Shown here: positions 8,822 to 45,115 of the stretch, piece after piece
How positions within the stretch are numbered: position 1 is the stretch's first letter
Layout of the letters: each line of letters starts with the position of its first letter
From: Candidatus Bathyarchaeota archaeon
Lineage (GTDB): Archaea; Thermoproteota; Bathyarchaeia; Bathyarchaeales; Bathycorpusculaceae
Direction: 5' to 3'
Length of the DNA stretch: 64,000 nucleotides
Assembly (NCBI GenBank): GCA_963767735.1
Contig: CAVYES010000004.1
Span: 160,001-224,000, forward strand
The notes under the pieces: generated by a model
The model's input: only the letters and a program-made list of their open reading frames with translations
Database searches by the model: none
What the model was told of the DNA's origin: nothing
Translations under genes and position numbers: made by a program

Positions 8822-8885
8822 AAACAGAAAGACTATTGAAATTCTGTTTGCGGGGGCGTTTTTTCAAAAACTATGTTTGTACGGA

Positions 8886-26924: not shown

Positions 26925-27243
26925 GGCGGTGGATCTTAGGCGGTGGGGTAGGGGTCCATTGTACCGTAAACCCTCTATACGACGGGCTGACATCTGCGGA
27001 TGAGGCGCCGAAGGCCGTTTGGATCTTCATTTCCGAAACATTGACTATCCGTCCTTTGGGGCTGGCGGTCTGTGGGCAGCTTCCGTAGGGGAGTTGCTTC
27101 ATTGTTAACCAGGCGAACCCGGCTAGGCTCGGGAGAGAGCAACCTAAGTTTGGACGTCGTGCGCTCAAGGGGGTGCGGGTAAGAGCGTAGGGCTTGAGGG
27201 TTCCAGGCGGAGTCTGGGCGTCAAACCGCAGTGATCCACCGCT
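26925..27243 (+). ncRNA. ffs: Archaeal SRP (7S) RNA
   Basis: Terminal helix GGCGGTGGATC / GATCCACCGCT, Alu-like 5' domain, helix-8 motif AGGCTC-GGGA-GAGAGCAACC, about 320 nt, GC-rich. Confidence 0.9.
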
Positions 27244-27250
27244 ACTAAAA

Positions 27251-27520
27251 TTATTCGTACGCTGCTTCTCTTTGCGAAATTTTCAGAATAATGATCGTTT
27301 GAGTGGTTTTATCCACCGAAAACATGACTCTAAATTTGCCCGTTCTTAATCGGTAAAAATCTTTCTGCCCTTCCATCTTCGTGACATCCAAATGCTCGTT
27401 TGGATTAGGAAAAGTTTCCAAGCACAAAATTTTCTGAAGTAATCCTTTCTTTGCTTTTTGATCCATGTGATCCAGAAATTTATCAACTTTTCTGTGGACA
27501 ATTATGCGGTAGTTAGGCAC
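27251..27520 (-). CDS. relE: RelE/ParE-family toxin
   Basis: YRLRTGKFRVMF...ILKISQREAAY. Confidence 0.9.
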   Translation of the reverse strand: MPNYRIIVHRKVDKFLDHMDQKAKKGLLQKILCLETFPNPNEHLDVTKMEGQKDFYRLRTGKFRVMFSVDKTTQTIIILKISQREAAYE

Positions 27521-27761
27521 CTTTTTTTACCTCATGCTTCTTGAGCACTTCTTCCAAAGGAACGCACTTACCCCGCTCAGCTTCATGCTTCAGAACCTCA
27601 AGTTCTTCCATTTCCTCGGGGCTGATTTTTTCCTCTGGAATCAAGGACTCAACAAGGCTGTCAAGCGACTTCTCAATCGATTTAAGCTCTAGCCGCACAC
27701 GTTTCACTTCTTCGTAAACTTTGCCTAAACTAACCTCAGAAGTCAAGTAGACCCTCATCAA
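27513..27761 (-). CDS. Cognate antitoxin (RelB-like)
   Basis: Upstream of and overlapping relE; acidic C-terminus with G.CVPLEEV. Confidence 0.8.
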   Translation of the reverse strand: MMRVYLTSEVSLGKVYEEVKRVRLELKSIEKSLDSLVESLIPEEKISPEEMEELEVLKHEAERGKCVPLEEVLKKHEVKKGA

Positions 27762-27829
27762 ATAATATCATACAGCGCCCTAATAACTTTTAACAAGAAA
27801 TAGAAACTCTCGCTTCTGGAAAAACAGCC

Positions 27830-27942
27830 AGTTTGGACGTCGTGCGCTCAAGGGGGTGCGGGTAAGAGCGTAGGGCTTGAAGGCTCCAGGCGGAGTCTGG
27901 GCGTCAAACCGCAGTGATCCACCGCTACTAATTTTATTCGTA
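27830..27942 (+). repeat. Direct-repeat copy of the SRP RNA 3' end (matches 27147-27259)
   Basis: 113-nt repeat with 4 mismatches by manual alignment. Confidence 0.95.
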
Positions 27943-27951
27943 TGTTAGCTA

Positions 27952-28104
27952 TCACTTTTCTTGCTCTTGCAGTATTGTCTGAATTGATTTCTTTAATGGC
28001 GGATTATTTTGAGTAGCGGCTTTCCAAAGTGTTTCTTCGTCCAATCCGAAGTAGGCGTGGATTAGTTTGTCTCGCATTCCATCTATTTGCTTCCAAGGAA
28101 GCTG
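27952..28104 (-). pseudogene. C-terminal fragment of a HEPN (DUF86) toxin
   Basis: QLPWKQIDGMRDKLIHAYFGLDEETLWKAAT...QEK*, with the Rx4H motif; 5' part missing. Confidence 0.85.
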
Positions 28105-28105
28105 T

Positions 28106-28345
28106 TTATACTATTTCTTCAATTGGTTTTGGAGGCGGGGTTGTTGCCATTGTATAGCCTATCCATGCACCGATCGCCAGAATAGCGATAAATGCTATGG
28201 AAACAAGAACTAGTACTGCATCTAACCTGATCGCGGGCGTTGCGAGTCCATTAATTGGAACAGCAACCAAAACGACGTAGCCGACTGCGACTATAGCGCA
28301 CACAATAAGTATTGCTCCACCTATTGCTTGATCTTTACTAACCGT
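28106..28345 (-). CDS. Paralog of the 12376 two-TM protein, start codon ACG
   Basis: Same GGTGGTGACTTGA leader and similar promoter, with ACG in place of ATG. Confidence 0.7.
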   Translation of the reverse strand, partial: TVSKDQAIGGAILIVCAIVAVGYVVLVAVPINGLATPAIRLDAVLVLVSIAFIAILAIGAWIGYTMATTPPPKPIEEIV

Positions 28346-28766
28346 TCAAGTCACCACCTTATAGCCATGCTCCTTTGCTCTTTTTCTCCCAATGTAAGGC
28401 AAACCGCGAAAAGGATATAAGGCATATTTCCAAAAACTAAACATAACAAAAACCAAGTAGCGAAGAACCAACCTGAACTATTTTTAAGTGGTATTACGGG
28501 CAAAGTCACGACTAATAAAAGAAAGGTTACAAAAAATTGACGGCGATTCAAACGAGTTTTGGGTGCGCCTTTAGGATCAAAGTCGGAAAAATTAGAGGCG
28601 TTTTTGTTAATCGCCTTTAGTTCAAGAGTTAGGCGCTGATTTGCCCGTTTGAGTTTTTGCTTGATATTCGAGTGGGCTGGTGGCTGTTTATGGGGCTTTC
28701 TGAAGGTGATATGCAGGAAGCTTTGCTGGCTTTAAATATTTTGAAAATAGGTTTTCAAGGGTTAGA

Positions 28767-29252
28767 GTGGGCTCAAGCAGTTCACGACTTAGAAACCTGC
28801 GGGAAAGGTTTAAATTGACCTTGGAAAACGCTTATTTAGACAAATCTGTCGAATTTGTGGATATGAGGTCCTGGGTAAAAATGAATTTGGCGGTTTTTCA
28901 TCGTCGAAAACAGCTTTTAGCCGCTTATTATAGCGGCATCTTAAATCCGGCTTTTATGCGTGAGCTTGCGGTGCAGTATCATTGTAGCCAGGCAGCGTTG
29001 TATGCGGATTGGGAGCGTCGGGCGAAGTGGGAGCCTTTGATCTGGGCAAGTCAGGAAGCTCATGAAGATGGCAAAGCTTTGCTGGGTCAATTGCAGCTTG
29101 CGCGTGAAGCAGCTTTGCGTCTTATGCTAAATCCGCGGTTAGGCGACAACGCAAGAGTTGCTGCCATTGGCCGATTTACTGAAACTGTTAAGACAGAGAT
29201 TGAGATGAGGCAGAGCCTTGGCTTGCTGCCGAAGATAACTGCGTCTCCGTAA
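28767..29252 (+). CDS. HTH + helical protein (orphan TerS-like or regulator)
   Basis: HTH-like ELAVQYHCSQAALYADW; C-terminal IEMRQSLG. Confidence 0.45.
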   Translation: MGSSSSRLRNLRERFKLTLENAYLDKSVEFVDMRSWVKMNLAVFHRRKQLLAAYYSGILNPAFMRELAVQYHCSQAALYADWERRAKWEPLIWASQEAHEDGKALLGQLQLAREAALRLMLNPRLGDNARVAAIGRFTETVKTEIEMRQSLGLLPKITASP

Positions 29253-29607
29253 GTGTAGGTAAAGCAGCAGGCAAACTTTGATGTTTAACAGAACACAGAA
29301 ATCCAGAAACAGCAAATTTGCTGCCTAAATTGATTATGCCTCGTGATAGTGGAGAAATCTTTGGTCTTCAACAAAATATGGACCTAAACAAATGGGTCAG
29401 TTGGATGCTAGTTTTTGTTGGGTTTGTTCGAAGTGTTCGAGGTAGAACACTTAGGGAACTTGTTTGTTAGTTGTTTTTGTGGGGTGATATGTCTTTGTCT
29501 TTCTGGCTGGAGTCGTTTTGTTTTGAGCAGCTTTCTTCTAACTGTTTTGTTTTGTCGAGTAGGTATGTTTAAGTGTATATTTAAACATTGACTGGTTGTG
29601 GTTTGAT

Positions 29608-29826
29608 ATGGTGAAAACCATCACTATTAGAGATGAAGTTTATGGGAAACTGCTAACCATAAAAGGAAAAGAGGAAAGCTTTAGCGAATTATTTGATAGG
29701 CTGGTTGAGTGTACATCACCTGTGGAAACGCTAAAGAAACTCAGAGGCAAAGTCGAATTCAACGACAAAGAGAAAGAAACGGTGCTTTCTGAGCTTTACT
29801 CTAAAAGGGCTGAAAAAAGAATTTGA
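29608..29826 (+). CDS. vapB: VapB-type antitoxin (DUF217-like)
   Basis: KTITIRDEVY..L...K...ESFSELF; overlaps the PIN gene. Confidence 0.85.
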   Translation: MVKTITIRDEVYGKLLTIKGKEESFSELFDRLVECTSPVETLKKLRGKVEFNDKEKETVLSELYSKRAEKRI

Positions 29827-30203
29827 TCGTCATCGATTCTGATGTCCTGATTGAACTCTTGGATCGAAAATCCGAGAAGGGCGACCAAGCCCTTAAGCAA
29901 ACTGTCGAAAGTAAAGAAGAAGTATCAACGACAGTCATTAGTTTGCATGAAGTTCTATACGGCTTACATAAATACGGCAAAACCGTCCAAGAGCTTCTTT
30001 CACTTCCAATTCTAAGCTACACTAAAAAAGATGCGGTCCTATCTAGCAAAATTGAACTTGAAGCAGAAAAGAAAGGAAAAACCGTCTGCAGAACTGACGC
30101 AATGATTGCAGCCATAACAATTAACAATAACGCAAAACTATACACATTCAATCAAAAACACTTTGAAGCTCTTCAAGACCTCGGGCTAGAACTCTACCCG
30201 TGA
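29823..30203 (+). CDS. vapC: VapC PIN-domain toxin
   Basis: IDSDVLI, E, DAMIAA, TFNQKHF. Confidence 0.9.
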   Translation: MIVIDSDVLIELLDRKSEKGDQALKQTVESKEEVSTTVISLHEVLYGLHKYGKTVQELLSLPILSYTKKDAVLSSKIELEAEKKGKTVCRTDAMIAAITINNNAKLYTFNQKHFEALQDLGLELYP

Positions 30204-30586
30204 ATATACCCATCTAAAAATCAATAGGCATCACCTGCAGTACTTTGCTGTAATCTTTAACTTCTGCGTGTGCTCCCATGAAAAAACACCCTACCCCCTT
30301 ACGTATTTTCATTTTGATGCGGCTACCCCACTGCAAATTCGAATTCTCCTGCCTACTAGTCGATGGGAGATTCAACATGACCCAGAATGGGGTTAGTGGT
30401 GGATCAACGAGGTAGAGAAGGGCAAGATAAGATTCCAGAAGCAAAAGCCTTATTGGAAAAAGTTTGCAAGTAAAGCACCTCGTAACCGGTTACGTGCTTC
30501 GCGCTAAAAAATGGGCCGCTTAAAGATTAAACCGACCGGACTTCTGCTTCGGGAAGTAGATACAATGGTTCGATTCCATTGGACGT

Positions 30587-31372
30587 TTATCCGAATATTA
30601 CGGTGAATGACGTGCCTTGATCCTTCAAGTTTGAAGCTGTGGCGATTTGGTTATTTTGGCTGTTTTGCATGACGATGTGGTCTTCTGAGAATGTGTTTGG
30701 GGATCCTGTTTTGCCGCCGATTTGCGCTGAGAGATTTGTGAAGGTTACGGTTCCGAAGTCTGCTAACGTGGCTTGTTGATTGTTGACTGTGGGTCTTTCT
30801 ACAATCCAGTCTGCTGTTAGCCGGGAAGAGTTGTATGTGAGGTTTTGTTCGTAACAGTTTTGGGTGAAGCATGCGCCTGTGGTGTCGTCGGCTATTCCGA
30901 TTTGCCAGCTTCGGGTTGTGGCATTGATGAGTGTTATAGATGCTGAGAGTTGGTCACCGGGCGAAATTGTGATGTTTTGTATGGTTACCGCGATGCCGGG
31001 CAGAGCTTCATACCATATACTGTAAACAGCTTGACCTAACAGAGAGTTCTGTTCAGAACCTACTTGGATAAGCGTAGTGTCCAATGCACCGCCGATGCCT
31101 ATCCAGACCGACGAAAATGAGTCAGAATCAGAAATGGCCACCTTCGGCACAGTCCAAGACCCACTCACAGCGTCAACTGTAGGCTGCGGCGACAGGTTAT
31201 TTGCCGATACCGCGTAGCCTGCCCAGTCCAAGCTGACGAAAGTTTGAGTTTGAAGCGACTTGAAATAGGGCCACGCGAATATATCTACCATAACCAGCGA
31301 AAACAAAAGCAAAGCTATCCCAAGCGCTATCAGCAGAATTGTGCGAATTCTCTGTTTTTGTCCATTTCGCAA
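30587..31372 (-). CDS. Membrane-anchored glutamic peptidase, family G1 (eqolisin)
   Basis: WAGY, WTVP, SVWIGIGG, catalytic Q (LIQVG) and E (WIVE); N-terminal TM. Confidence 0.85.
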   Translation of the reverse strand: MRNGQKQRIRTILLIALGIALLLFSLVMVDIFAWPYFKSLQTQTFVSLDWAGYAVSANNLSPQPTVDAVSGSWTVPKVAISDSDSFSSVWIGIGGALDTTLIQVGSEQNSLLGQAVYSIWYEALPGIAVTIQNITISPGDQLSASITLINATTRSWQIGIADDTTGACFTQNCYEQNLTYNSSRLTADWIVERPTVNNQQATLADFGTVTFTNLSAQIGGKTGSPNTFSEDHIVMQNSQNNQIATASNLKDQGTSFTVIFG

Positions 31373-31593
31373 TTAACTTGTCTCCTCGACCTTTCGGGGT
31401 ACGCGCCCGACAACTCAAACGTTGACTCACATAGAGCTAATGTCCGAACCATATTTAAGCGCCAATCCCTGAGCTAACTTATTTTTAAAGCGCGATTATA
31501 GGCATAGTTACGACTAATAAAAAAGTCAGGGCTGGTAAGAGATTTACGAAAACTTTTTTATTATCCATTTAATTACTACCTTTTGGTGAGAAT

Positions 31594-31824
31594 TTAAGTA
31601 AGTCTATAACGGTCTCTACAAAGATTCCTAAACAACTTAAAGAAAAAATAGACCGGCTAAAGATTAAACCTTCCAGACTCCTGCGAAAAGCTATCGAAGA
31701 TGAAATAAAAAGAAGAGAAACTGAAGAGCTTAAAGAAGAAATAGATAAATTAAAGCCAATTCTCGAGAAAGTAAACATGGAAGACATAGTGAAAAGCATA
31801 AGAGAAGATAGGGACAGCAGATGA
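31594..31824 (+). CDS. vapB: RHH antitoxin (VapB/CcdA-like), not in the ORF track
   Basis: SITVSTKIPKQLKEKIDRL...IRED R DSR*; ATGA overlap with the PIN gene; GGTGA SD but no ATG/GTG/TTG in frame. Confidence 0.75.
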   Translation, partial: LSKSITVSTKIPKQLKEKIDRLKIKPSRLLRKAIEDEIKRRETEELKEEIDKLKPILEKVNMEDIVKSIREDRDSR

Positions 31825-32240
31825 AATACCTGTTTGACGCCTCAGCCATATTTAGAGCTATTAAAGAAAACAAAATTGACCTCTTAACCGGAAACTATAC
31901 ACTAGAACTATCGAGGTACGAGCTGGGAAACATCGTGTGGAAAGACTACTTCTTGCAAGCAAAAATCTCAAAAGAAGAAGCAAAAATGATCGTTAAAACA
32001 ATCAAACACACACTAGCCATAATGGAAATCTTGCAAATAGCCAGTAACGAAGAAGAAATATTGGAGACCGCAACACAATTGAAAATCACTTTTTATGACG
32101 CATCATACGCTTACTTTGCTAAAGCGAAAGAGCTACAACTAATAACCGAGGATTTACGCTTAATGAAAAAGCTAACACCCATTATCAAAGCCACACTGTT
32201 AAACGAAATCGAGCAACAAAATGGAAAAAAGCCACCATAG
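31821..32240 (+). CDS. vapC: VapC PIN-domain toxin
   Basis: LFDASAI, YELGN, TFYDASY, ITED. Confidence 0.9.
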   Translation: MKYLFDASAIFRAIKENKIDLLTGNYTLELSRYELGNIVWKDYFLQAKISKEEAKMIVKTIKHTLAIMEILQIASNEEEILETATQLKITFYDASYAYFAKAKELQLITEDLRLMKKLTPIIKATLLNEIEQQNGKKPP

Positions 32241-32372
32241 TCCGCGCATTACAAGGTCTATTAAGAGCGCGGAGCGCTAACTTTTTACACATTGGCTATG
32301 TGCAATCGATTCAAAATCCTTTGCGCGCGCACGTACGCCTTTTTATAGAAAAAAAAGGAGTTTTTAATGATG

Positions 32373-32609
32373 TTATTTTTCTTCAACGACAATCATTGTA
32401 AGTGTTGCCTTCACGTTGTCTAGCCGTCGAACGTGCCACGTTATTATTTCTTTTAACTTATCAATACTGTCTGCTTTGACTTTTGCCATTATGTCGTAGA
32501 CTCCGTAAACACCTGATGCTTCTACAACCCCTTCCACATCTTTGAGTTCTTTCAAAACGTCAGATTCAGAACCTATCTTGGTATTTATTGAAACAAAGGC
32601 TGTTGGCAT
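32373..32609 (-). CDS. Stand-alone Lrp/AsnC ligand-binding (RAM) domain
   Basis: VYGVYDIMAKV...T.TMIV. Confidence 0.85.
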   Translation of the reverse strand: MPTAFVSINTKIGSESDVLKELKDVEGVVEASGVYGVYDIMAKVKADSIDKLKEIITWHVRRLDNVKATLTMIVVEEK

Positions 32610-33035
32610 ATCAATCCAAGCCTCTAATAATTAATTAGCTAAGTGTGCATTAAAATGTTCTCCTTAATGGAATCACTAAGCACTCGTACCCTCAACCTCC
32701 CCTTCTTGTGTCGCGCGTCGTGTTGCGTTGCCCGCGCGCTACAGGCAGCATTAAAGAAAGGTAAATTTGAACAAAGCTTCAAAATTTACTACACATGGTC
32801 ACAGACTCTTAGGGAATACCAAAAAAACTCGGAGCAAGAGTACATAAAGGGCATCCTCTATTCAATGCTGGTCTTTCACGTTTCCTTGAAGGAACCAATA
32901 TGATGCTTTTAGTTTTTTTCTGCTTGCTTATGTCGAAGACGTAATTTCAGCGTTGAAGGAGGGGGAATCAGATAAGACGCCTGCATTCAGAAACTTGTCA
33001 AGCTTAATAGGTGGATCAGCTCCTCTCAAAGCGCG

Positions 33036-33047
33036 CTGCCCTGTCCC
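33036..33047. mobile_element. Solo IS terminal-repeat remnant
   Basis: CGCG followed by CTGCCCTGTCCC, nearly identical to the IS IR. Confidence 0.55.
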
Positions 33048-33173
33048 TTTATTGCGGGCAGCGTTGCGATAGACACTTTTTCAAACTACTAAATATTATT
33101 ATACAACTTAGCTTTTACGTTAATATTGGGCTTTTCTTAACATAGAATGTGACGCGCGGGAGGTGAGAAGAGA

Positions 33174-33620
33174 ATGACAGAAGAGAAAATGATTCCCCAA
33201 AAACCCGTTCTTGAAGTCTTATGTGCAATTCAAGGCGCCTTAGGCGAAGAAAACCAGAAGGTATTTGCAAAAGCCAGTATGGCACTTGGAAAAACCTGGG
33301 GTAAATCTGTACCTCCAGCCAAAAACGTGGATGCTTTGATGAAGGAAATCGCAGACTACCTCCGCGACGACCTGAAGCTTGCCCAAAGCATTACTGTAGA
33401 AAAGCAAGGACAAGATTACATCGTGAAAAACCGCGGTTGCTACATATGCCACGGCAAACTCGTAAAAGAAAGATACGGTATCATGCCCGCCTGCGCCATG
33501 TCTATGTTCCCAGCGGGAGCACTCACGGAAAACCTTAAAATAAAAAATGTCCGACTGAAAGAAATTCGCAAACCAGGTCCAGTCGGCGACTGCGACTGGG
33601 TCTACGAAGTGGCAAGCTGA
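33174..33620 (+). CDS. V4R/MetOD-like Cys-containing ligand-binding protein
   Basis: GGAGGTGA SD; CYIC...C...C pattern. Confidence 0.55.
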   Translation: MTEEKMIPQKPVLEVLCAIQGALGEENQKVFAKASMALGKTWGKSVPPAKNVDALMKEIADYLRDDLKLAQSITVEKQGQDYIVKNRGCYICHGKLVKERYGIMPACAMSMFPAGALTENLKIKNVRLKEIRKPGPVGDCDWVYEVAS

Positions 33621-33822
33621 CCCTCAACCTTATTTTTTGGGAAGCACGCTGGTCCTTGATAAAGAGTCATTAAAATTTAATTCCAAACCTAAAGCGCGGT
33701 GCGCTACGAAGGTAGATTCTCATAGAATAGCGCGCTAAATACCATGAGCGGAGCTCGGCTCAACCCTTAGCTACCACGAAAATCATAAATTGATGCTATG
33801 ATTAAGATATTGCGTGATTTAG

Positions 33823-34272
33823 TTGTCACTTGAAGTTGTACCACATGTTGAGCTGGAAAAATATTTAGGCAAATGGTATGAGATAGCACACCTTCCTGCC
33901 AAATTCCAAGAAGGCTGCAACGAAACCACCGCCACTTACACGTTATCAAAGGATGGCAGCATATCCGTGCTCAACCAATGCACAAAAAATGGCAAGATGA
34001 AACAGGCAAAAGGCAAAGCAAAAGTACTTGATAAGAACTCTAACGCAAAACTCAAAGTAACGTTCTTCTGGCCATTCTATGGTGATTATTGGATTATAAA
34101 ATTGGGGAATAACTATGATTATGCCGTTGTAGGTACACCAAACCGCCAGTATCTTTGGATATTGAACAGAACCCCACAAATGGATGACAAGCTATACTCA
34201 CAATTAATAGAATACGTAAAGTCAAGAGGTTTCGATGTAAACAAGCTCATAAGAACTCTTCAAAAGGCATAA
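33823..34272 (+). CDS. blc: Bacterial-type lipocalin (no lipoprotein signal)
   Basis: YLGKWYEIA, KLKVTFFWPFYGDYW, YLWIL.R. Confidence 0.9.
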   Translation: MSLEVVPHVELEKYLGKWYEIAHLPAKFQEGCNETTATYTLSKDGSISVLNQCTKNGKMKQAKGKAKVLDKNSNAKLKVTFFWPFYGDYWIIKLGNNYDYAVVGTPNRQYLWILNRTPQMDDKLYSQLIEYVKSRGFDVNKLIRTLQKA

Positions 34273-34965
34273 AGCGCACACTGCTAAAAAAATCTAGAAT
34301 CCATTATTTTATTTGTTCAGCGCGCGATAGCCAGCAAAATCAACACTGATCCGCCCAGCGTGACGCGTTCACGCAAGAACGCACACAAAAAGATCAAGAA
34401 TGCAAAAACCGACTTGGAATGGAGCGCGCGCTTTGCTGGCTTGCTCATGAAAAAACGTACCTACCTCCTTACTTTTTTCATCTTGATGAATTGCTCCTCA
34501 TAACCGAAAGAGCATAATTAGAACTGTATTTGGAAACAGAATGGGTGATTCATAAGAAAAATAAACGTGGTTTGTCGTTAACTCAAATGTGACGTGCCGG
34601 GCGATATTGATGACTATAACTTTAAGCTTCATAGTGAGTGTTTGTGACTATGTAAATGGCAACAGTGACAAAAGCTTGGATGAGATCACAGACAGAATAT
34701 TGTCTACGGTTCGGGCGTATGACCTGCAAGATTTTTTCGAGAAAATCGCGTTGTTCAGTTCTTCAAATAACCGCTATCAAGAACTTAAGGCGAACTGTGA
34801 AGCGCTGCAAGAAATCAAACATGGCAAAGTCATTAACGCAAAAGTAAATGCCTGTGCACGCGCTACAGCATAAAGTATCCGACGATCTCGATGCGAAGGA
34901 TGCTGCAGCGGCTTTCGAATAAGCCGAAAAAATGATGAAACTCTACGAAGTTCATAGTTAGCGCG

Positions 34966-35008
34966 CTGCCTTGTCCCGAAATTATTAATGTTTATTCTTG
35001 AGTTGGGG
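34966..35008 (+). mobile_element. Left-end remnant of a related IS
   Basis: CGCG + CTGCCTTGTCCC...GTTTATTCTTGAGTTGGGG resembles the first 45 bp of the IS. Confidence 0.7.
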
Positions 35009-35048
35009 TGTTTCATTGCTGATTAAGGCTGCTGCCAATTGGAGCTCC

Positions 35049-35779
35049 TCATTTCCATTTTGTGAGTATTTCTTCTCGTCTGAATGTGCGTTTGCTTACG
35101 AAAAATAGAGCCACATCAAAAATCAGCACACCACCGGCGAAGATCAGAAGGTTACCGATGCTAAAGGTAATTACTCCTTCTACTCCTGCAACGAAGACAG
35201 CCATGAACGGAATAAACATGAGGCCCGCAATCTGGTTTGCACCACGCACATCGGTCACGCGGGATGAAGCAAGCACGCCTGTTTCGATGCTAAAAACGGC
35301 TGCCAGAGGCGCGAGGATTAAGAGCATAACTCCCGCGTTCCAATTAGGGAAATAATAGTAGCCTAGCCCCGCATGTAACAGTATGTAGTCCGATGCTGCC
35401 ATGAAGGTTGATGCTCCAGCCCACATTGAGAGCATAGGCGGCAAGAACGCTGCGAGGCTTTTTCCTAGGAGAATTTCGCCGTCAGTGGTCGGGGTAGCGA
35501 GAAGGGGCTCCAATGTCTTCTCGAGCTTTTCGCCCACTATACTGTAGCCTGCAATCGTACTGGGGAGAACAGCCGCTAAAACAACGAAGAAGTAAATGAG
35601 TGATTCGGCACTAGTTGAAGATTACTAGGGATTCCAGAGGCTACGTCGTTTCTTATTTCGAGTGACCAAGCAACCGCTAGAAGAAATGGAAGCGCGACGG
35701 TATAGAACATTATACTTTTTTTTCTGCTTATCACCTTTAACTCTTTGCGCGCTATCTTCCACGGCAACCATGTGCTCAT
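35049..35779 (-). pseudogene. ABC-2 type permease, frameshifted near 35610
   Basis: KIARKEL N-terminus and GEK..TLEPLLATP in different frames. Confidence 0.8.
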
Positions 35780-36357
35780 TGTTTATCCTCCATTACTAAT
35801 TTTAGGTAAGCGTCTTCTAGCGAACTACTGATCACGGAGACGGTCTCGATTCGCCCTCCCGCAGCGACTATTGCGTTTACTATGTCAGGATTCTCTTCCT
35901 CGGGATTCAAGACGTCGACTGTCAGCTTGTTACCATCCCTAACCAAGTTCTTGACCTGTAATTTCTTCAGCGAATTCAGGACTACTTCGCTTGCCTGTCT
36001 CAGTTGAATTACCGTCTTCCTTCCCTGGATAGGGCGTTCAAGTTCTTCAGGGGTACCTACTGCCATTAGACGAGTATTCAATATGCCAATCTTATCGCAG
36101 GTCCTTTGCGCCTCATCGAGGTTGTGTGTATTGAGGAAGATGGTTTTTTTCTCCTTCTTTAACTCGAGGATGAATTCCCTCACGGCCTTTGCAGCCTTGG
36201 GATCCAAGTTTGCGGTTGGCTCAGGTCGTGGTCTTTCCCGCTCCGTTTGGTCCGAGGAAACCGAAGACTTCTCCCTTTTCCACGCGAAGAGTTAGATTGT
36301 CAACAGCAGTCAGGTCGCCGAACTTTCTTGTAAGGTTCTTAGTTTCGATCGTGCCAA
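35776..36357 (-). pseudogene. ABC ATPase with an internal deletion
   Basis: Walker [11 protein letters not shown] is joined directly and out of frame to the Walker B/D-loop EPTANLDP at about 36223; Q-loop and signature motif are absent. Confidence 0.85.
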
Positions 36358-36511
36358 GCCGCCTCTCAATGCGTTTTAAATTAAGAAGTGAAATTGGATA
36401 TAAAAGTGCCTGCGCCTGAGGTAAAGGTCTTCCAGAAACTGGCGGGCATAGAGTGGATAAGTTTGAATTTATTCGCGCGCTATCACAAACATATAAGAAT
36501 GCCGCGCGTGG

Positions 36512-36772
36512 CTAAACCGCTGCCGCCCAGCTTTTCGTCCCTTTCGGGAACTTTGGTTTGCTGTTTACGACGCCCGACCGTTTGAGGTTTACAGCGTTTT
36601 CGCCTGTAACTATCAGAACCTGCTCTGCCAAGAACCCCGTCAACGAGTCAAGCGCTGAGCCATCACTTTCTTTCTTATGTTCAGCCACATGATTTTTTAT
36701 GGCTCGGTTCATGGCTTTCAAATCGGGCACCACCAAAATTTCAGAGCCGCATACACATCTGATAGTAGACAT
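36512..36772 (-). CDS. Small Zn-binding hypothetical protein (CxCG...H...H)
   Basis: IRCVCGSEILVVPDLKAMNRAIKNH...H. Confidence 0.6.
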   Translation of the reverse strand: MSTIRCVCGSEILVVPDLKAMNRAIKNHVAEHKKESDGSALDSLTGFLAEQVLIVTGENAVNLKRSGVVNSKPKFPKGTKSWAAAV

Positions 36773-37081
36773 ATTTTTCGTATGAGCAGCGAATTTGCCG
36801 CTGCGGTCTTGGTCAGAAGTGAAGTTAATTTCTTGGATCCTTTTTCTTGTCGTTCCTCTCACTCTTAAATTGACCACTTTTTGATCTATACCAAAGCAAA
36901 TTGTTTGTTCTATTCTGCAAAGCATATAAAAACTTGTGGTAGGCTTGGCACAATCACAATCACGGAAACAGCATGCGAAGCTCATGCTGTTTCAGGAAGC
37001 GAGCAGTAAAGCAGAAATTAAGAAAGGCCTGTCGTGAAAAGGGCGGGATAGGGAATTATCCAAACAATTTATTTTATAGCT

Positions 37082-37375
37082 TTAGAACGGATAGGGCGCT
37101 TTTTTTCCTGTTTCTTCAACTATGGGAAGCCCTTCTCTGAGCTCTCTGAAATACTTGAGCACTGTAACGCCGCGTTGCGTGATCGCATAGACCAATCTTT
37201 CCTTTCTAATGATTTTCTCTTCAACCAGCCCCTGCTTAGTCAAGAAGTCAAGATACCCCTTCAGCACGCTGCAGTTAACGTTAGCCTTGTACATGACGCG
37301 CGTCAGCTTCGAAGGACCCCAGTGAACCAAGACCTTCAGAATATCCACATGCATTTCCAGTTTAGATCTTCTCAT
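37082..37375 (-). CDS. Winged-HTH regulator (HTH_45/ArnR-like)
   Basis: RRSKLE...IL...T.VMYKANVN...YL..L...GL...YAIT.RG. Confidence 0.85.
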   Translation of the reverse strand: MRRSKLEMHVDILKVLVHWGPSKLTRVMYKANVNCSVLKGYLDFLTKQGLVEEKIIRKERLVYAITQRGVTVLKYFRELREGLPIVEETGKKAPYPF

Positions 37376-37803
37376 ACATTATCTTTTTTTTGGCGCACTT
37401 CTATTAGCAACGCTCTAATATTTCTGGTGTTAGCGCGCCCTTCTCCATGCACTATATTAGTGATACAACACTTATAGGTATAATGAATTAATTCACGAAT
37501 ATTATGAAATAAATGTGTATTATTTGATAATAATATTTAAAAAAGCAGTTTTCAAATGCAAAAGTGATATTGTCAAATTCGGCGAACAAAGCGTTGGGAG
37601 AAGATGGAAAACAGCCTTCTTGGGCGAAGATCTTGAAGATCGACCAACACCAGAAGCAAAGGCCTGTCGCCGTTTGGAGGGGATAGAGAGTGAACTATTA
37701 TTATTTTTATATTATTTTTTATATGTTCTGATGATTAGCTTAAACCAGAAAGACCTCTCTTTCCCTCTGTGGGGGTAAGTTTTTGGAAGGCCTTAGCAAC
37801 GGT

Positions 37804-38112
37804 TTAGCGCATGTGAATGTTCTTAAATGCGTGTTTGTGGGATTTGAGCACAACGGAGATTATGGTGCTTTGGACGCCTTTGATCTTCATGATTTTCTTG
37901 TGCAAGACGTTGCGGAACTCTTCCACGCTCGAAGCCGAAACTATGGAAACAATGTCAAATTCGCCGGCCACATCGTAAATCTCCTCTATGTTTTCAACCT
38001 TTTCGAGGGCATCTATAACTTGTGCCTTTTGGGACGGATCAACAAAAATGTTGACTGAGGCTTCGAACCGATCGTGAATATTACTGGACTCCATATTGGT
38101 CATTAAAAACAA
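37804..38112 (-). CDS. Stand-alone Lrp/AsnC ligand-binding domain
   Basis: VAGEFDIVSIV...IKGVQST. Confidence 0.8.
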   Translation of the reverse strand: MFLMTNMESSNIHDRFEASVNIFVDPSQKAQVIDALEKVENIEEIYDVAGEFDIVSIVSASSVEEFRNVLHKKIMKIKGVQSTIISVVLKSHKHAFKNIHMR

Positions 38113-38371
38113 TTAAGCAGGTCGGGCGGCTTTTAGGCATTTTTGAGAATGAAAATGCACTAATTTGAGAAGCAGAGCGGGCTAAAGGCCTTTCGCGAAT
38201 TGGGCGTCGCGAGCTGAGGTCGGATGCCTTAGTAGTCTGGATTTTTTCGGAAACATCAATTTTACGACTTCTCAACCGTGGCTGAGCTCTTTCCTTAGGA
38301 GCAATTAAGAGAACTTGTAAAGTTGGAAAATCAACCCTTTCGAAGTTTTTTTAAGTTTAACACGCGCGCCC

Positions 38372-38722
38372 TTATAGCCGGCGCGTACGCGGCCACCAAG
38401 TTGCGGATTCCTCGTGTTTGCTCTTTGGCGCTTCATAAATGATGATCTTGACTGCTTCCTTTGGAACTCCTAAACCTTCAAAAACCCTAGTTATCCCTTC
38501 AACTGTTTTCTTTTTATTCTCGGGGCTAATGTCCTCCCGAACATGAACTATTATGATTTCATTTGATAACTCGTGCGCACTTTTTGGCACTTCATAAATG
38601 ACGATCTTGACTGCTTCCTTTGGAACCCTTAAATCTTCAAAAACCCTAGTTATCCCTTCAACTGTTTTCTTCTTGTTCTCAGGGCTAATGTCCTCCCGAA
38701 CAGAAACTTGGACTTCTATCAT
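38372..38722 (-). CDS. Tandemly duplicated 4-oxalocrotonate tautomerase-like protein
   Basis: Two near-identical units (VREDISPENKKKTVEGITRVFE.L.VPKEAVKI.IYE.PKS). Confidence 0.8.
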   Translation of the reverse strand: MIEVQVSVREDISPENKKKTVEGITRVFEDLRVPKEAVKIVIYEVPKSAHELSNEIIIVHVREDISPENKKKTVEGITRVFEGLGVPKEAVKIIIYEAPKSKHEESATWWPRTRRL

Positions 38723-38896
38723 TCCATTTTTGCCTCAAATAGCACTTTTGCTCTTTCACCTAATTAATATGTCCAATCTCCTGAATGCATTTTCAGCGTT
38801 AAGGCTGAACAGGTCAGAAAAAGCCAGATTCCTTACTATGCTAGCAAGACAAAAAGGAAATATACAAAGAAAGCGATTTAGCAACGAACTGACGCG

Positions 38897-39998
38897 CTGC
38901 CTTGTCCCGATATTACGTGTTGAAGTATGTTGGTGAGACTGCTTTATCGTATCTTCCGAAGTTTTCTGCCGCCTCTCGGTTCAGAACTAAGCATAGAATG
39001 CTAAAGAGCGCATATGAAGCTACGTTGCCTAAGCCTCTTACTTTATTGACGGTTAGGCTGTACTGTGTCTTTAGGAAGCTGTAGACTGCCTCTACATGAG
39101 GTCTTTTGTGGTACTCCTTCTTCTGTTCTTCCGGTCCATAGGCTCGAAACTTCTTGTCCACTCTCAGCAAGCCCTTAACGTCCCGTTTCTGGTTTGAACG
39201 ATACGGTATCACCGCAGCGTCGACAGCGTCTCTGAGTTTGCCGTCGCTGTACTGGCTGTCAGCTATCACACTTCTCAATTTAGCCTCAGACTGCTTGAGA
39301 ATCAGCTTGGTCTTCTCCAGCAGGTTCAATGAGTGTTTCTGCTCGTTCTGATTAGCCGAAGCAAAAATGCAGGCTAAAGGAAGCATAGTCGCAGAATCGA
39401 TAGCTAAGTGCAGCTTGTAGCCGAGTCCGAATGATCTGCCTGCGCGTCCGACTCTGGCTTCCTTGTCTGAATAGCCGGTCTGGTTGTCCAGTGGATCACG
39501 TGTACTCCACGCATCTATAAAGGAAGCATCAAAAATGGAATCAACGTCTCTTGCACTGCTGTGTTTCGAGAGCTTAACAACTTTCTCGTCTATTATGTTA
39601 ATGAGGCGGATTTCTCCGACTTTGCGGATGAACCTGCTGAGAACGCTTCGTGGGTAACCTTTTTCGGCTGGTTTGATGAGGCACAATCGTCTAAGCCTTG
39701 GGTCTGCGTCGAGTAGTCTGGTCATTTCTCTTAGGCTGCGAACGCCCTTCATGCGCATAACGATGAAGGTTCTGAAAAGTCCCATTGGGTTTCTGGGGGG
39801 TCTTCCTGGACCATCGGAATGGAAGCAGTCGAGTAAGGCTGCTTTAGCAAAACTTAAGTCTACGTTTCTGAAGAGGGTTTCTAGGGTCTCGTGTTCATCT
39901 TGTCCCGCTTGGGGTCACCTCCTAAGCTTGGACGTAACTCATTTGAAACGAGGCCCCAACTCAAAAATAAACGTTTACTTAATTAAGGGACAAGCCAG
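38897..39998 (-). mobile_element. Insertion sequence copy 2 (inverted)
   Basis: Same IRs and length, CGCG on both flanks; at least three substitutions relative to copy 1. Confidence 0.9.
38913..39785 (-). CDS. DDE transposase
   Basis: Two amino-acid differences from 13764-14636. Confidence 0.9.
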   Translation of the reverse strand: MGLFRTFIVMRMKGVRSLREMTRLLDADPRLRRLCLIKPAEKGYPRSVLSRFIRKVGEIRLINIIDEKVVKLSKHSSARDVDSIFDASFIDAWSTRDPLDNQTGYSDKEARVGRAGRSFGLGYKLHLAIDSATMLPLACIFASANQNEQKHSLNLLEKTKLILKQSEAKLRSVIADSQYSDGKLRDAVDAAVIPYRSNQKRDVKGLLRVDKKFRAYGPEEQKKEYHKRPHVEAVYSFLKTQYSLTVNKVRGLGNVASYALFSILCLVLNREAAENFGRYDKAVSPTYFNT

Positions 39999-40164
39999 CG
40001 CGTGTGCGTTTTGAAGAAATCGTGCTTGTTGTAGCAAAACACAATCACAAACCGATAAATTAATTGTTTGATCAACTTTTAGATAAAAGGCAAAAAACTG
40101 ATGCAACTGATAAGAAAAGGTTGATATCTTCAAAATTTGTCTCTATTATCTCGAGGCGATAATT

Positions 40165-40830
40165 TTGTTATTTTTCTTAGCTTCTGTTTTCCTTTTCAAA
40201 GAAGAGGCAGTGAAAATCGGACCGATATTGGCATTAGCGCTTTCTCAAACGGCTGATGTGTTGGATCTTTCGGGTTTAATTCAGGTCCTCAGCGCCATAA
40301 GTTCCATTGCTGTAATCCTTGGAGTCGTTTTCATTATAGTGCAGCTTCGTCAGAACGCGAAGTTAATTGACTTAAATGCGAAGTTAACGGAGGCTACTTT
40401 TCGGGATGTAAAATCCAACATCTCCTTTGAAATACTTGAGAAATTGAGTGATGAATCATTCGCTAGGCGCAGAAGCTTCATGTGGCATACGGTGAAGAAG
40501 TATCAAGCGTCTAATTGGGAAGGCTTCGATGATAGCTCGGACGACTTTGAGATACGAAACTTCGCATACATGTACGACCTTTACGGTCAACTGACAAAGG
40601 AGGGCTTATTAGATCTCGAGATAATGGCTAAAACATTCAAGTACCTTGTGGCGTTAGACTGGGAAGCGTTCGAGCCTGTTTCAAATCACATCATGAAGCG
40701 TTATAACCTCACGCAAAATGAGATTTTCTCAGATTTTGAGTGGCTTGCTAAAGAAACCGAGAAAATCTTGAAGCAAAAAGGAAGCCAAGTCCCGAAAATT
40801 ACGCATCCAGGACGCGAACACGAAGGTTAA
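40165..40830 (+). CDS. Membrane-anchored helical protein (DUF4760-like)
   Basis: TM helix + QLR; G.LD...W...FEWLA pattern recalled from the family. Confidence 0.55.
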   Translation: MLFFLASVFLFKEEAVKIGPILALALSQTADVLDLSGLIQVLSAISSIAVILGVVFIIVQLRQNAKLIDLNAKLTEATFRDVKSNISFEILEKLSDESFARRRSFMWHTVKKYQASNWEGFDDSSDDFEIRNFAYMYDLYGQLTKEGLLDLEIMAKTFKYLVALDWEAFEPVSNHIMKRYNLTQNEIFSDFEWLAKETEKILKQKGSQVPKITHPGREHEG

Positions 40831-41639
40831 GCATTGTTACAACTTGCTAGTTGTCAATAAGAAAAGCAATTTACTATTAATGTTGATAGAGCACGTAAAG
40901 TGGAGTCGGCAGAGTCTTTCCAAGTGTGCCTTCGCTCAAGAAAAAAAGCTTTGAACCCGTTTGGGTATGGGGACGGGCAGCCCCATTAAAGGTTCCGAAC
41001 CGTTTCGGGTTCAAGTATCTGCGAGAGCAACACAACCGCAACAAATTTTAGGTTCATATCTTGCCGCAGATAGATGCCTTGCTGCAAAGACTGCTGTTTT
41101 CGGTTGTCGTTCGATGGATGGATAACGACCGTCTTAAAGCGACTTTCGAGTTGGTTCTCAGAAAGGCGGCTCTACGAAAAGTAAACTTGCGCTTAGTGGA
41201 AATTGAACTTGAGGGTTCAATTTTATCGTTTTTTTCCTGCGGAAGAAGGCTGGATTGGGCTTGAAACTGGAAATCGGGTTAAAAACCGCTTGATCTCCTT
41301 AGAAGTTGTGAACCTTTTACATGGAAAACAGAGGCTAGTTTGAACTTTTCGCATGTTGAGAGAGCACGATTTTGACGTGATTTTGTAGGGTTTGAGTGGC
41401 TCCTGAAGTGGTGGTCGTTGTGGGAAGAAACCATACGTCGACGATTCATTTATGAGGTAAGGGCGGTTCGTTGCCGAACGGTTTCCGCCAGTTCCTCTTG
41501 GTTTTTTTCGGGCCGCTTTGGCATATTGTGAACAGGGACAGGTACGTTTTGGTTTCAGGGTAGGGTTTGCACGCTCTGCCGTGCTCGCGGCACCATAGTA
41601 TCAGACTTATCGTAAGTTTTTTTATACGAAACTAGGCAG

Positions 41640-41863
41640 CGAGCTTCTAAGTTGAGGCAATCTACAAAAGCGTCAATGAACCGTACCGGGTTTTCCTTGT
41701 TGACGTAATCATCAAGTATGTTTGGGAAGAGAACTGACTGATTTCTGTAATGGCCTGTTATGTGTTCGCCATTACTTTTCAGTTCTTTCTGTTGCTCTAA
41801 AGCTAGTCTAGATTTAAGGTTGACGGTAAATAGCCACAAAGAAGGAGACTTTTCACACAGGCT
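41640..41863 (-). mobile_element. IS1182-family remnant (left end + transposase N-terminus)
   Basis: HITGHYRNQSVLFPNILDDYVNKENPVRFIDAFVDCLNL; IR-like GAGCCTGTGTGAAAAGTC. Confidence 0.75.
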
Positions 41864-41962
41864 CAGATGGGTTCGGAACCAAAACTAAAAATGTCGAGAT
41901 TCGACTGGCGCCTGGAGGGGGATCCCAGCCCCATTTTACCAGTAAAAATAAATTGAGTGCAA

Positions 41963-41984
41963 GTCCGGTGGGATTTTGAGCCCA
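41963..41984 (-). repeat. Degenerate copy of the tRNA-Arg 3' end (possible att remnant)
   Basis: gtccggtgggattttgagccca versus tRNA gcccggtgggattt-gaaccca, same orientation. Confidence 0.5.
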
Positions 41985-42152
41985 AAAGGGGACGGGACCA
42001 TAACTTTAAAATCACCAATTTCTGAGAAACTTTGGAAAAACAATCCACAGCAGACATTTCTATATCAAAAGTGAGCTGGGCGCGAGTCGACCTGAGGGAA
42101 TCAGAGTTAGATATGTTTATGACTGATAGCGGCTCAGTACTGTTCCTGACAG

Positions 42153-42368
42153 ATGACCAGAGGAATTTTAATAATAGAAAAACGTAAAGGCATAACAACT
42201 GATGAACGACGGGCTAAAGCTTTAGCTCTTGAATTTTTAAAATCATTCCCAAATTATACAGTTAATTTATTTGAACAAAGATGGACTGAATTTTTGGGCG
42301 AAAAGGTACGATATGGCAACCCAAAAGATATAGCCGATGAATTCCTTAAAAAATATGGAGAGATTTAA
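42153..42368 (+). CDS. Hypothetical protein
   Basis: AT-rich small ORF. Confidence 0.45.
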   Translation: MTRGILIIEKRKGITTDERRAKALALEFLKSFPNYTVNLFEQRWTEFLGEKVRYGNPKDIADEFLKKYGEI

Positions 42369-42795
42369 AATGAACAACCAAACAAACCCAAAAAACAGGA
42401 TAAAGTTATTTTGTTATAGTGAATTTTCTTCCACATCTATCGCAAGTGTAAGTTTCAATTGTGAAAAAGGTATTCTGTAATTTAGCTTGAGGTTTTGAAA
42501 CTTCATTCTGGCAGTTGGGGCATTCAGCCACTTGATTTACAACCTTACCTTAAATCTTGCTACTTGACAATATTAGCATTTGTTGTCGCATGTTGCAACA
42601 GTTTTCTGTGCACTGTTTCCAGCTTGACCAGACCACTGTAGCGACTTAATGCACTCTCAATATAGCCAAGTTTCCAAGTTTCTACCCATTGAATTAGGCA
42701 CTTGCAGAAAGTAATTATCATGTGCATATTCAAAATTTGAGAGGCAAAAACTTAACAGAAACCAAAAGAACTAATCATTTCAAAGGCTAAAAAAA

Positions 42796-43026
42796 ATGGT
42801 AAAACTGGATTCTGAGGGTAATATTTTAGTTGGAAATGAAAAAATTCACTATAAATGGTATCGCAGTGGACGCCGAGTTACAAGTGATCGTTTAACAGTA
42901 AGTTATCACTATTGCATAGAAACAACATATAATAGAGAATTAATTTCAATAGATGATTACGGCAACGGCTTAGAATATGCGAAAAAGTTGCTAGAAAACG
43001 AAATTTTAAAAAGACAAAAAGTTTAA
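42796..43026 (+). CDS. Hypothetical protein
   Basis: AT-rich small ORF. Confidence 0.45.
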   Translation: MVKLDSEGNILVGNEKIHYKWYRSGRRVTSDRLTVSYHYCIETTYNRELISIDDYGNGLEYAKKLLENEILKRQKV

Positions 43027-43332
43027 AAAGTATCCGTCGTTCACTAAATTAGCTATTTCTTAATAGCCGGTCGAAGTAAATTGAGTAAGCAAAATGAAGA
43101 AAACAAAATTAAACCTAATGAAGAAAATAAACCTAAACCTAAAAACGCCTATGTTAAAAGTAATCGCCATAATCGTAAATTTCATAGGCGATAGAGCCAG
43201 AGTAATTGAGTAGTTATGGTGATATATTAGATACATTAGAAATTTGATAGTTTGGCTAAAAGCGAATTGAAAAATTACGTTGATAATTTGTATTTGCCAA
43301 GCGGATCGATTCTTTAATTCCTCTATTGATTG

Positions 43333-44196: not shown

Positions 44197-44257
44197 CTGC
44201 CAAACGCCATCCTTTTCACTTAATTGATTTTCTGTCGCATCTTACCATGTTTAACCA

Positions 44258-44710: not shown

Positions 44711-44803
44711 ACTTATTCTCCATATTTCTCTTGGTGGTGTTCTTATCGTACATCTATTTTAGCTGTTTTCCTCACATTGGACACACAGAAAAACAAAACT
44801 AAA

Positions 44804-45115
44804 CTATGAAAATCTTGTTGAGCGGACCAATGCTTTAAAGTACATAACTATTCTGGTTCCGTAACAATTATAATAATGCCCCCAGCAGCATTCGTAACCT
44901 CGTGCAGATTCCGTTCGCTTCCCATTCTTTTCATGCAGAAAAACTATTACTCGTTCACCCGAATGTTGCCCTCGCGTAGCCAATGTTGCTTTTGCAATAA
45001 ATGGTTTCCCTTCTATCTCCGTCTGCAAAGAAAGCTCACCTTTAATATTCAAAGAATCCCATACTTTATCAAATTCACAATCCAATCTCACAGTTCCTCG
45101 ATGGGGCTCAAACAT
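44804..45115 (-). CDS. Hypothetical protein
   Basis: ORF with CCWG.Y.NC motif. Confidence 0.5.
   Translation of the reverse strand: MFEPHRGTVRLDCEFDKVWDSLNIKGELSLQTEIEGKPFIAKATLATRGQHSGERVIVFLHEKNGKRTESARGYECCWGHYYNCYGTRIVMYFKALVRSTRFS

Follow-up and report, generated by a model that had tools for sequence, protein, structure and literature searches.

We analyzed the gene for the signal recognition particle (SRP) RNA, and the small toxin-antitoxin (TA) cassette that adjoins its 3' end, in the genome of a Candidatus Bathyarchaeota archaeon belonging to a genus of uncultured soil and sediment archaea of the Bathyarchaeia. The window is a stretch of 64,000 nucleotides (nt) of this genome (positions 160,001 to 224,000 of contig CAVYES010000004.1, assembly GCA_963767735.1), and coordinates given below without another label refer to it. 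The source genome (3.04 Mb) is denoted G000; G-, C- and L-numbers are otherwise our labels for the genomes, contigs and loci of its relatives. An initial annotation of the window, made from the letters alone, had described the SRP RNA 3' end as a landing site on which TA cassettes are stacked, and we followed up this description by comparing the locus with its counterparts in related genomes and metagenomes.

A repeated SRP RNA 3' end around a TA cassette

A complete archaeal SRP (7S) RNA gene lies at 26927-27241 on the plus strand, matching model positions 1-317 of Rfam family RF01857 with 153.3 bits (gathering score 96.5); searching the whole genome with the full Rfam model retrieved this gene as the sole full SRP RNA gene of G000. 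The 3' end of the gene is duplicated. The proximal copy of the repeat (copy A, 27147-27259, plus strand) comprises the last 95 nt of the gene and 18 nt downstream, and the distal copy (copy B, 27830-27942, plus strand) is a 5'-truncated partial SRP gene made up of SRP positions 221-315 and 18 nt, with neither a promoter nor the 5' strand of the SRP RNA. The two copies form one direct-repeat family; each is 113 nt long, they differ at 4 positions (96% identity), and their starts are 683 nt apart. The duplication first described as about 97 nt of the RNA plus 16 nt of downstream sequence holds with a slight shift of its boundary. Exactly two copies of the repeat occur in the entire G000 genome, and their E-values (6.7e-54 and 1.8e-48) rule out a chance resemblance.

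Whether the mismatches that fall within the RNA preserve base pairing, a point raised in the initial annotation, could be read from a consensus structure built from 28 SRP sequences of the genus (93 predicted pairs, 16 of them with compensatory changes). The G>A difference at position 27198 turns a U.G pair of the proximal copy into a U-A pair in the distal one, a pair that is UA in 15 and UG in 12 of the 28 sequences, and the T>C difference at 27201 falls in an unpaired bulge. Pairing is thus left intact by both, and either version would work in a functional RNA. The distal copies of two relatives, G020 and G066, carry four pair-breaking changes each, like decaying fragments.

The 570 bp between copies A and B hold, as was claimed, a relBE-type operon transcribed toward the RNA gene and nothing else. 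Its two overlapping genes, both on the minus strand, code for an 89-aa toxin of the RelE/ParE superfamily, archaeal RelE type (27251-27520; PF05016, 28.2 bits against a cut-off of 23), and for an 82-aa protein whose open reading frame (ORF; 27513-27761) lies upstream of the RelE gene and overlaps it by 8 nt. The stop codon of the RelE gene stands 10 nt past the 3' end of the RNA, and copy A overlaps the stop and the last codons of this gene. A profile of five RelE orthologues matches the structure of Pyrococcus horikoshii aRelE (PDB 1WMI_A, E = 3e-14) and that of RelE3 (PDB 3BPQ_B, E = 8.7e-5), and the orthologues in G130, G020, G078 and G123 are 53-94% identical to the RelE of the window. The 82-aa partner, which is kept beside RelE in 11 genomes of the genus, has no family match in Pfam, NCBIfam or PADLOC, and its best match in the PDB (E = 0.2) is to an unrelated protein; its position in the operon makes it a putative antitoxin, and the toxin family together with the operon layout makes the pair a predicted type II TA system of the RelE/ParE superfamily. 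A Pfam scan of the ORFs confirmed that no integrase is encoded inside the repeats. Alignment with the relative G130 placed the right end of the cassette, on the promoter side of the TA operon, and its junction with copy B at 27762-27829; as compared to G130, about 127 nt, including SRP positions 152-220, are absent at the left edge of the window's copy B.

Ten nucleotides beyond copy B lies what is left of a second toxin gene, a 41-aa 3' remnant of a HepT (HEPN) gene in the same orientation (27952-28077, minus strand; PF01934, 34.4 bits). The remnant covers positions 86-120 of the 120-position profile and contains the R-x4-H motif as RDKLIH, in agreement with the 3' part of a HEPN toxin gene that had been noted after the second repeat. 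Stop codons close the frame upstream of this ORF, which identifies it as a 3' remnant, and no MNT gene adjoins it in the window to complete a full-length HepT-MNT module. It is 82% identical to the HepT encoded directly after the SRP gene in G019, and the intact HepT-MNT pair of G130 occupies the same place.

Since G000 is a metagenome-assembled genome (MAG), and since the contigs of six relatives (G021, G023, G024, G069, G135 and G078) end at or just after the SRP gene, we considered whether the repeat could be an assembly or binning artefact, for instance a collapsed or chimeric join of two strains. This is extremely improbable. Contigs assembled from one public short-read run cover 27228-27383 and 27548-27922 without a difference, and a contig from a second run (X2, from another study) spans 27807-27981, again without a difference; the two runs may include the source sample. 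The same architecture recurs in at least 7 other assemblies and in metagenome contigs from JGI, and copies A and B differ from each other at 4 positions and have unique flanks. The artefact that had been named as a possible explanation of the repeat is therefore argued against by both the bridging contigs and the independent assemblies of relatives.

A variable slot downstream of the SRP RNA gene

We searched the 113-nt repeat in 120 genomes of the genus, found a match in 110 of them, and took the 3' flanks from all matching genomes; the flank counts below refer to the 104 genomes with at least 1.5 kb of sequence downstream of the SRP gene. Upstream, the order trpD-C-B-A followed by the SRP gene is conserved in 17-19 of 30 loci, and downstream a conserved gene of about 190 aa, here called c2, marks the far side of a slot whose content varies strongly. 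In 19 of the 104 genomes c2 lies within 300 nt of the SRP gene, which we read as the empty site, and in 46 it lies within 5 kb. At least one recognized TA gene occupies the slot in 26 of the 104 genomes, the families being RelE/ParE with its partner, ParE-RHH, PIN-UPF0175 and HepT-MNT, nearly all of them on the minus strand. Other cargo includes a PAS/GAF histidine kinase (31 genomes), a HEAT-repeat gene and, as single cases, a TIR effector, Mrr nucleases, a methylase and DDE transposases. Throughout the genus this slot is where the locus is most flexible, and the variability of cassettes among relatives that the initial annotation predicted is indeed seen.

In six genomes the slot holds a block that includes a large terminase subunit (phrog_2, E = 2e-44), an ABC/GNAT-like ATPase and several small conserved genes, placed between the SRP gene and c2 (loci L124, L126, L134, L148, L151 and L087 of G059, G056, G054, G058, G055 and G046, respectively). 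No integrase was found within 40 kb of it in five of these genomes, and no att repeat. It may be what is left of a provirus, or a packaging module that has been domesticated.

The repeat matched at least twice in 9 of the 110 genomes. One of these, G103, was set aside for having two full SRP genes on two contigs, which leaves 8 of 110 genomes with partial SRP copies: G000, G020, G066, G078, G097, G108, G123 and G130. Among metagenome loci with a RelE relative, 4 of 13 (L168, L170, L173 and L176) have a partial SRP copy beyond the antitoxin gene. The simplest layouts resemble that of the window: in G020 the SRP gene is followed by RelE-antitoxin, a copy of SRP positions 233-324 and c2, and in G123 by RelE-antitoxin and SRP 155-307. 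In G130 the SRP gene is followed by RelE (94% identical at the amino-acid level)-antitoxin, SRP 152-315, HepT-MNT, PIN-UPF0175, a kinase, a zinc-ribbon gene, a second HepT-MNT and c2; this stack is the intact counterpart of the arrangement seen in the window. A further unit is built around a gene that we call X. In G066 the order is SRP, X (485 aa), SRP 215-315, RelE-antitoxin, SRP 212-276, and in the JGI metagenome contig L168 it is trpB-trpA, SRP, X (503 aa), SRP 215-315, RelE-antitoxin, SRP 164-315, then UPF0175, ParE-RHH, a kinase and a second RelE-antitoxin. The SRP gene of G078 is split over two contig ends, and L168, whose downstream proteins are 100% identical, resolves its layout. In G097 the order is SRP, HepT-MNT, a small gene, PIN-UPF0175, SRP 189-305.

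The serial stacking proposed by the initial annotation is thus seen in G130, L168 and G066, with two successive partial copies in the latter two; most stacked cassettes, however, have no SRP remnant of their own. Searching for short SRP-end remnants between stacked cassettes returned six matches, against zero expected from shuffled sequences, and all six were copies already known; beside the RelE cassettes of G078 (the distal one), G110, G087 and L074, alignment to the SRP end was no better than with shuffles. What the annotation had called TA-only islets did not prove to be so restricted. TA genes are found in 6 of the 8 repeat-bounded units examined for content, at a locus that is TA-rich anyway, and repeat-bounded units also carry the 503-aa X and, in another family, a radical-SAM gene. 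The recurrent use of the SRP RNA 3' end as a landing site, on the other hand, is well supported by the partial copies and by the strong variability of the cassettes in relatives.

The partial copy starts at SRP position 215 for the X unit in both G066 and L168, and at 152-173 for the RelE unit in six loci (among them L170 at 165, L173 at 164 and L176 at 173); across genomes, RelE-unit boundaries fall at 152, 155, 164, 165, 173, 212, 221 and 233. Two loci differ from the common layout. In G108 (L067, G108:C5), two partial 3' copies (5266-5303 and 8757-8837) lie inverted upstream of the full gene with X between them, an arrangement suggestive of an inversion that broke within an SRP copy. In G097 (L065, G097:C6), SRP positions 13-144 are found a second time, at 98.5% identity, about 2 kb upstream of the SRP gene, and a gene for a DUF7507 protein stands between the two; the same gene is found directly upstream of the SRP gene in G108. 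The upstream copy in G097 indicates that the 5' side of the SRP gene also takes insertions.

Outside the genus, a genome from another family of the same order, G030 (L056, G030:C44), contains the SRP gene and a copy of it (3279-3591 and 4938-5231), the copy being 294 nt long, 99.3% identical and devoid of the first 20 nt; it stands 1.35 kb after the gene, and a radical-SAM/SPASM gene lies between. A class-wide search with the full Rfam model found a second match in 2 of 134 matching genomes (G030 and G193), a number that says little on short copies outside the genus, as the full model missed even the partial copy of G000 itself.

Gene X is found in 5 of the 120 genomes, and its close forms (72-100% identical at the amino-acid level) all stand beside the SRP 3' end. 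Its copies (L168:5618-7129, minus strand; L066:11027-12484 of G066, minus strand; L067:5503-7035 of G108, plus strand) code for 485-503 aa and belong to a large, well conserved family of unnamed proteins, of which we found 1452 relatives. No match to X was found in Pfam, NCBIfam, PHROG or PADLOC. In its confident AlphaFold model (pLDDT 89.4) only a central domain shows a weak resemblance to nucleoside 2-deoxyribosyltransferase, DNPH1 and TIR folds (best Foldseek E = 0.07), and X may be a defence or nucleotide-processing enzyme. The idea that X is a recombinase was rejected both by sequence and by fold.

SRP RNA genes are often found at or near the ends of MAG contigs, in the genus (the six genomes named above) as well as in the wider class (G165, G197, G213 and G269), and such breaks would be expected from repeats or strain variation at the locus. 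The two contigs of G103 (L068 and L069) each carry trp genes and a full SRP gene, one of them ending 226 nt past it, and probably represent two strains or redundancy of the bin.

Possible routes of insertion and loss

The 113-nt repeat is best read as a scar left where DNA was inserted at the 3' end of the SRP RNA gene. As in islands that occupy tRNA and tmRNA genes, the insert is flanked by a direct repeat of the 3' part of the target gene and the gene itself is intact; the integrase gene inside the element, which belongs to that picture, is missing. We found no integrase inside the repeat-bounded units of G000, G020, G123, G130, G066, G097 and L168, nor in the 5-kb SRP flank of any of the 104 genomes. 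The tyrosine-recombinase family PF00589 was likewise absent from 113 cluster representatives, from 35 further ORFs of at least 170 aa and from other ORFs near the repeats, the scan having covered singleton ORFs from 170 aa upward, and neither c2 nor the zinc-ribbon gene gave a recombinase signal.

We favor the explanation that the units are recombinase-free cassettes which use the partial SRP copy as a homology arm, are spread by the host's homologous recombination and are kept by their TA cargo, and we give it about an even chance of being right. One such unit would be the RelE-antitoxin cassette of the window, which has the intact SRP gene on one side and, on the other, a displaced copy of the gene, truncated from the 5' side to its 3' third. 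Each unit carries its own partial SRP copy at its far end and encodes no recombinase; this copy would be one homology arm, and the full SRP gene at the near end would be the other. A donor segment consisting of the SRP gene, the unit and the partial SRP copy could then enter a naive genome by an ordinary double crossover, with the left arm in the SRP gene or trpA and the right arm formed by the partial copy, paired with the 3' third of the recipient's SRP gene. A double crossover with these arms would recreate the observed layout whatever lies downstream. New units would land beside the gene and push older ones outward, and recombination between the repeats could delete a unit again; TA cargo would penalize this loss, which would explain why TA genes dominate among the retained cargo. 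Homologous recombination would be the motor of the units and TA addiction their stabilizer.

The recurrence of partial copies, the serial stacking, the variable slot, the lack of a recombinase, the transfer-like similarity of X between G078 and G108 and the fixed ends of the units all count in favor of this explanation, and two further observations fit it. Within the genus, SRP genes are 85-98% identical, as compared to 66-90% for trpA and trpB, and are the best-conserved DNA in the neighborhood; a unit from a relative should consequently be insertable into any genome of the genus by host recombination. In addition, the haplotype GAGGGTTCC is carried by the proximal copy in G000 and by the distal copy in G130, while GAAGGCT(C/T)C is carried by the distal copy in G000 and the proximal one in G130. 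This swap suggests that the exchange point is not fixed, and fits crossovers that may fall at any place in the shared sequence better than crossovers confined to a single core. More tentatively, and with somewhat less than an even chance, such units may form a class of "homology-armed" cassettes that home to the SRP RNA gene of any related archaeon through the recombination machinery of the host alone and stack there serially, with TA or defence-type cargo guarding them against loop-out.

Alternatively, the units may be non-autonomous elements integrated site-specifically by an integrase acting in trans, the partial SRP copy being an attP that recombined with the SRP 3' end and the tyrosine recombinase being encoded elsewhere, on the chromosome, a virus or a plasmid, much as integron cassettes or mobilizable islands depend on a helper. 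The arrangement follows the classic pattern of tRNA/tmRNA islands (an intact gene, the insert and a displaced 3' fragment in direct orientation), the start of the fragment is fairly constant for each unit type (215 for X, 152-173 for most RelE units), and in G130 the distal copy looks native and the 3' part of the proximal copy foreign, like att chimeras. In the proteins of G000 we found 16 matches to PF00589, of which 11 exceed the cut-off, and the terminase-bearing, virus-derived block shares the slot in six genomes. The bacterial gene ffs serves a phage as a proven or proposed att site (PMC12540744), and Tn7-CRISPR elements reportedly use it as well. We nevertheless consider an integrase acting in trans rather unlikely, given that none is encoded in the units or near the SRP gene, or in the wider surroundings of the terminase block. 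Moreover, within the 120 genomes of the genus the SRP fragment turned up at the SRP locus only, and a 25-nt SRP word, sought as the sign of a free attP carrier, had 0 matches in viral contigs, so that no free attP carrier is known; the exchange point also appears to differ between G000 and G130. Of the two routes envisaged in the initial annotation, a trans-acting integrase and recombination anchored by homology, the evidence leans to the second.

A third explanation dispenses with mobility altogether: a single old illegitimate duplication could have been inherited vertically, with the repeats kept alike by gene conversion and the patchy distribution produced by losses through recombination between them. 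Distal copies do share SRP variants of their own genome (three in G020, two in G066), which is a mark of concerted evolution, older copies carry pair-breaking changes in the manner of pseudogenes, and a single deletion between repeats would convert the L168 layout into that of G000. Divergence of the G000-G020 cassette (77.6% identity, flanks 82.0% and 79.2%), and of X between G066 and G078 (73.4%, versus 80.2% for trpB), lies in the range of the flanks. Between G078 and G108, however, X is 89.9% identical over 1512 nt, as compared to 78.3% for trpB and 73.4% for trpA, and this unit thereby shows transfer-like similarity between species. RelE cassettes stand at different stack positions, with two paralogues in G078 alone; the TA cassette of G130 is 79.2% identical to that of G078 and 92.4% to that of G000, even though the trp genes place G130 equally close to both (trpB and trpA identities being 89.7% and 85.4% for G130-G078, and 89.3% and 82.8% for G130-G000). 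The closest relative by SRP sequence, G004, has no cassette, other cargo is bounded by repeats in G097 and G030, and the sequence to the left of the partial copy is unrelated between G130 and G123. We regard purely vertical descent as unlikely.

Several points weigh against spread by homologous recombination, the explanation that we favor. The differing RelE-unit boundaries require later deletions, and for every unit type an initial illegitimate duplication has still to be assumed. As most stacked cassettes are without an SRP remnant, many insertions arose otherwise or lost their scar. A helper acting in trans is possible in view of the 16 recombinase-family matches in G000. TA identity between G000 and G020, set against that of the flanks, fits plain vertical descent, and the higher identity of X could stem in part from strong constraint, the family being highly conserved. 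Finally, contigs of four runs contained no joint that would indicate a circle, an empty site or a recombination intermediate for the cassette, but contigs hide rare forms and at most 29% of the sampled words occurred in any one run, so that this negative is no evidence of absence.

Other origins were rejected. Simple tandem duplication does not account for two units that carry different genes. Retro-copies of SRP RNA were considered in view of the constant 3' end and variable 5' truncation, and were rejected since no copy is found more than a few kb from the gene and all, save those in G108, share its orientation. A 447-aa gene beside the SRP gene in G059, considered as a recombinase, codes for a beta-helix protein. 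The integron reading fails, with no PF00589 gene at the locus and no inter-cassette repeats, attC-like or otherwise conserved, in three stacks.

In the window itself, synteny with relatives ends at a rearrangement breakpoint just beyond the HepT remnant (28078-28112), and one contig of run X2 diverges to the left of 28112. In 30 relatives, the 10 kb that follow the SRP gene encode no relative of any window ORF between 28767 and 36985, and two matches of later ORFs lie upstream of the SRP gene in relatives. The conserved block formed by c2, a zinc-finger gene and an OB-fold gene sits on a different contig of G000 (C2:217113-219434), and the DNA on its other side is unrelated. A later rearrangement in G000 would have cut the HepT cassette and moved the c2 block elsewhere. 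In the simplest history, the ancestral layout had HepT-MNT and further cassettes after the SRP gene, the RelE unit then entered at the SRP end, and the later rearrangement cut HepT at about 28078-28112.

The stretch from 28106 to 46000 looks accessory and is without relatives at the SRP locus. Its genes include VapB-VapC (29596-30203), a second PIN gene (31821-32240), a peptidase A4 (30587-31372), a lipocalin, fragments of ABC-transporter genes and a DDE transposase (38913-39785). Beyond it, an intron-bearing tRNA gene (46549-46645, minus strand; Rfam, 51 bits) stands beside a 478-aa ORF of the PF00589 tyrosine-recombinase family (46773-48209, minus strand), and this is probably another integrative element. 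A repeat of this tRNA gene, sought in the window as the far boundary of an element reaching the HepT breakpoint, was not found.

Relation to known mobile and toxin-antitoxin systems

Insertion hot spots at RNA genes are normally credited to integrases that recognize tRNA or tmRNA genes. At the locus described here, the corresponding target is the SRP RNA gene of an archaeon, and what it receives are very small cassettes without an integration enzyme. If the explanation that we favor is true, host recombination combined with a carried homology arm would be a cheap and general route by which TA and defence genes spread among related archaea, and an essential RNA gene would serve as a docking port shared by selfish and defensive genes with no dedicated enzyme. 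The locus would also offer a natural test of the idea that TA modules stabilize the DNA around them. Strain-level gene content can be read at the SRP locus, and the combination of the SRP 3' site with an arm could be used for targeted insertion once these archaea become tractable.

Our literature searches (main texts, supplements aside) turned up no report of insertion at an archaeal SRP RNA gene or of TA cassettes beside such a gene, and the mentions of 7S RNA that we found stood in annotation lists only. Type I-F3 Tn7-CRISPR elements are reported to home to ffs, the bacterial gene for the 4.5S (SRP) RNA (bioRxiv 10.1101/2020.07.02.184150). The same gene is the attB of phage phiEf11, and was described in 2025 as a novel site (PMC12540744). 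The word SRP is absent from a survey of archaeal head-tailed proviruses (PMC11705971). The bacterial insertions resemble ours in using the SRP RNA gene as a safe, conserved landing site, but they bring their own integrase, or a transposase with a guide RNA, whereas here there is neither and the host is archaeal.

Islands of the Islander type and proviruses reportedly reside in the 3' ends of tRNA and tmRNA genes, as set out by Williams in 2002. The likeness to these islands and proviruses extends from the intact structural-RNA gene, the insert and the displaced direct repeat of the gene's 3' part to tandem arrays at one gene, in which newer inserts lie nearer to it. The locus described here differs by its target, an archaeal SRP RNA gene, by the small size of its units (0.6-2 kb), by the lack of an integrase and by an exchange point that is apparently not fixed.

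With regard to its cargo, the RelE-antitoxin pair resembles the archaeal RelBE system of P. horikoshii (aRelE-aRelB, PDB 1WMI) in toxin family, two-gene operon and overlapping genes, and differs in its antitoxin, for which no relative is detectable in Pfam, NCBIfam or the PDB. The HepT of the window matches the family of the HepT-MNT type II/VII TA modules, and differs from them as a dead remnant without MNT.

In chromosomal integrons, TA cassettes are thought to prevent loss of the cassette array. Such arrays share with the SRP locus small cassettes, mostly of a single operon and in one orientation, that are stacked beside a fixed site; here, in contrast, there is no integron integrase, attI, attC or conserved inter-cassette repeat. 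The minimal mobile elements of Neisseria are cassettes located between conserved genes and exchanged by transformation and homologous recombination. Like the units at the SRP gene, they are recombinase-free, owe their mobility to conserved flanking homology and place alternative cargo in one slot. What distinguishes the SRP units is that their far arm is a duplicate piece, carried by the unit, of the same essential RNA gene, so that insertion would be independent of the downstream DNA and would add to the content of the slot rather than replace it.

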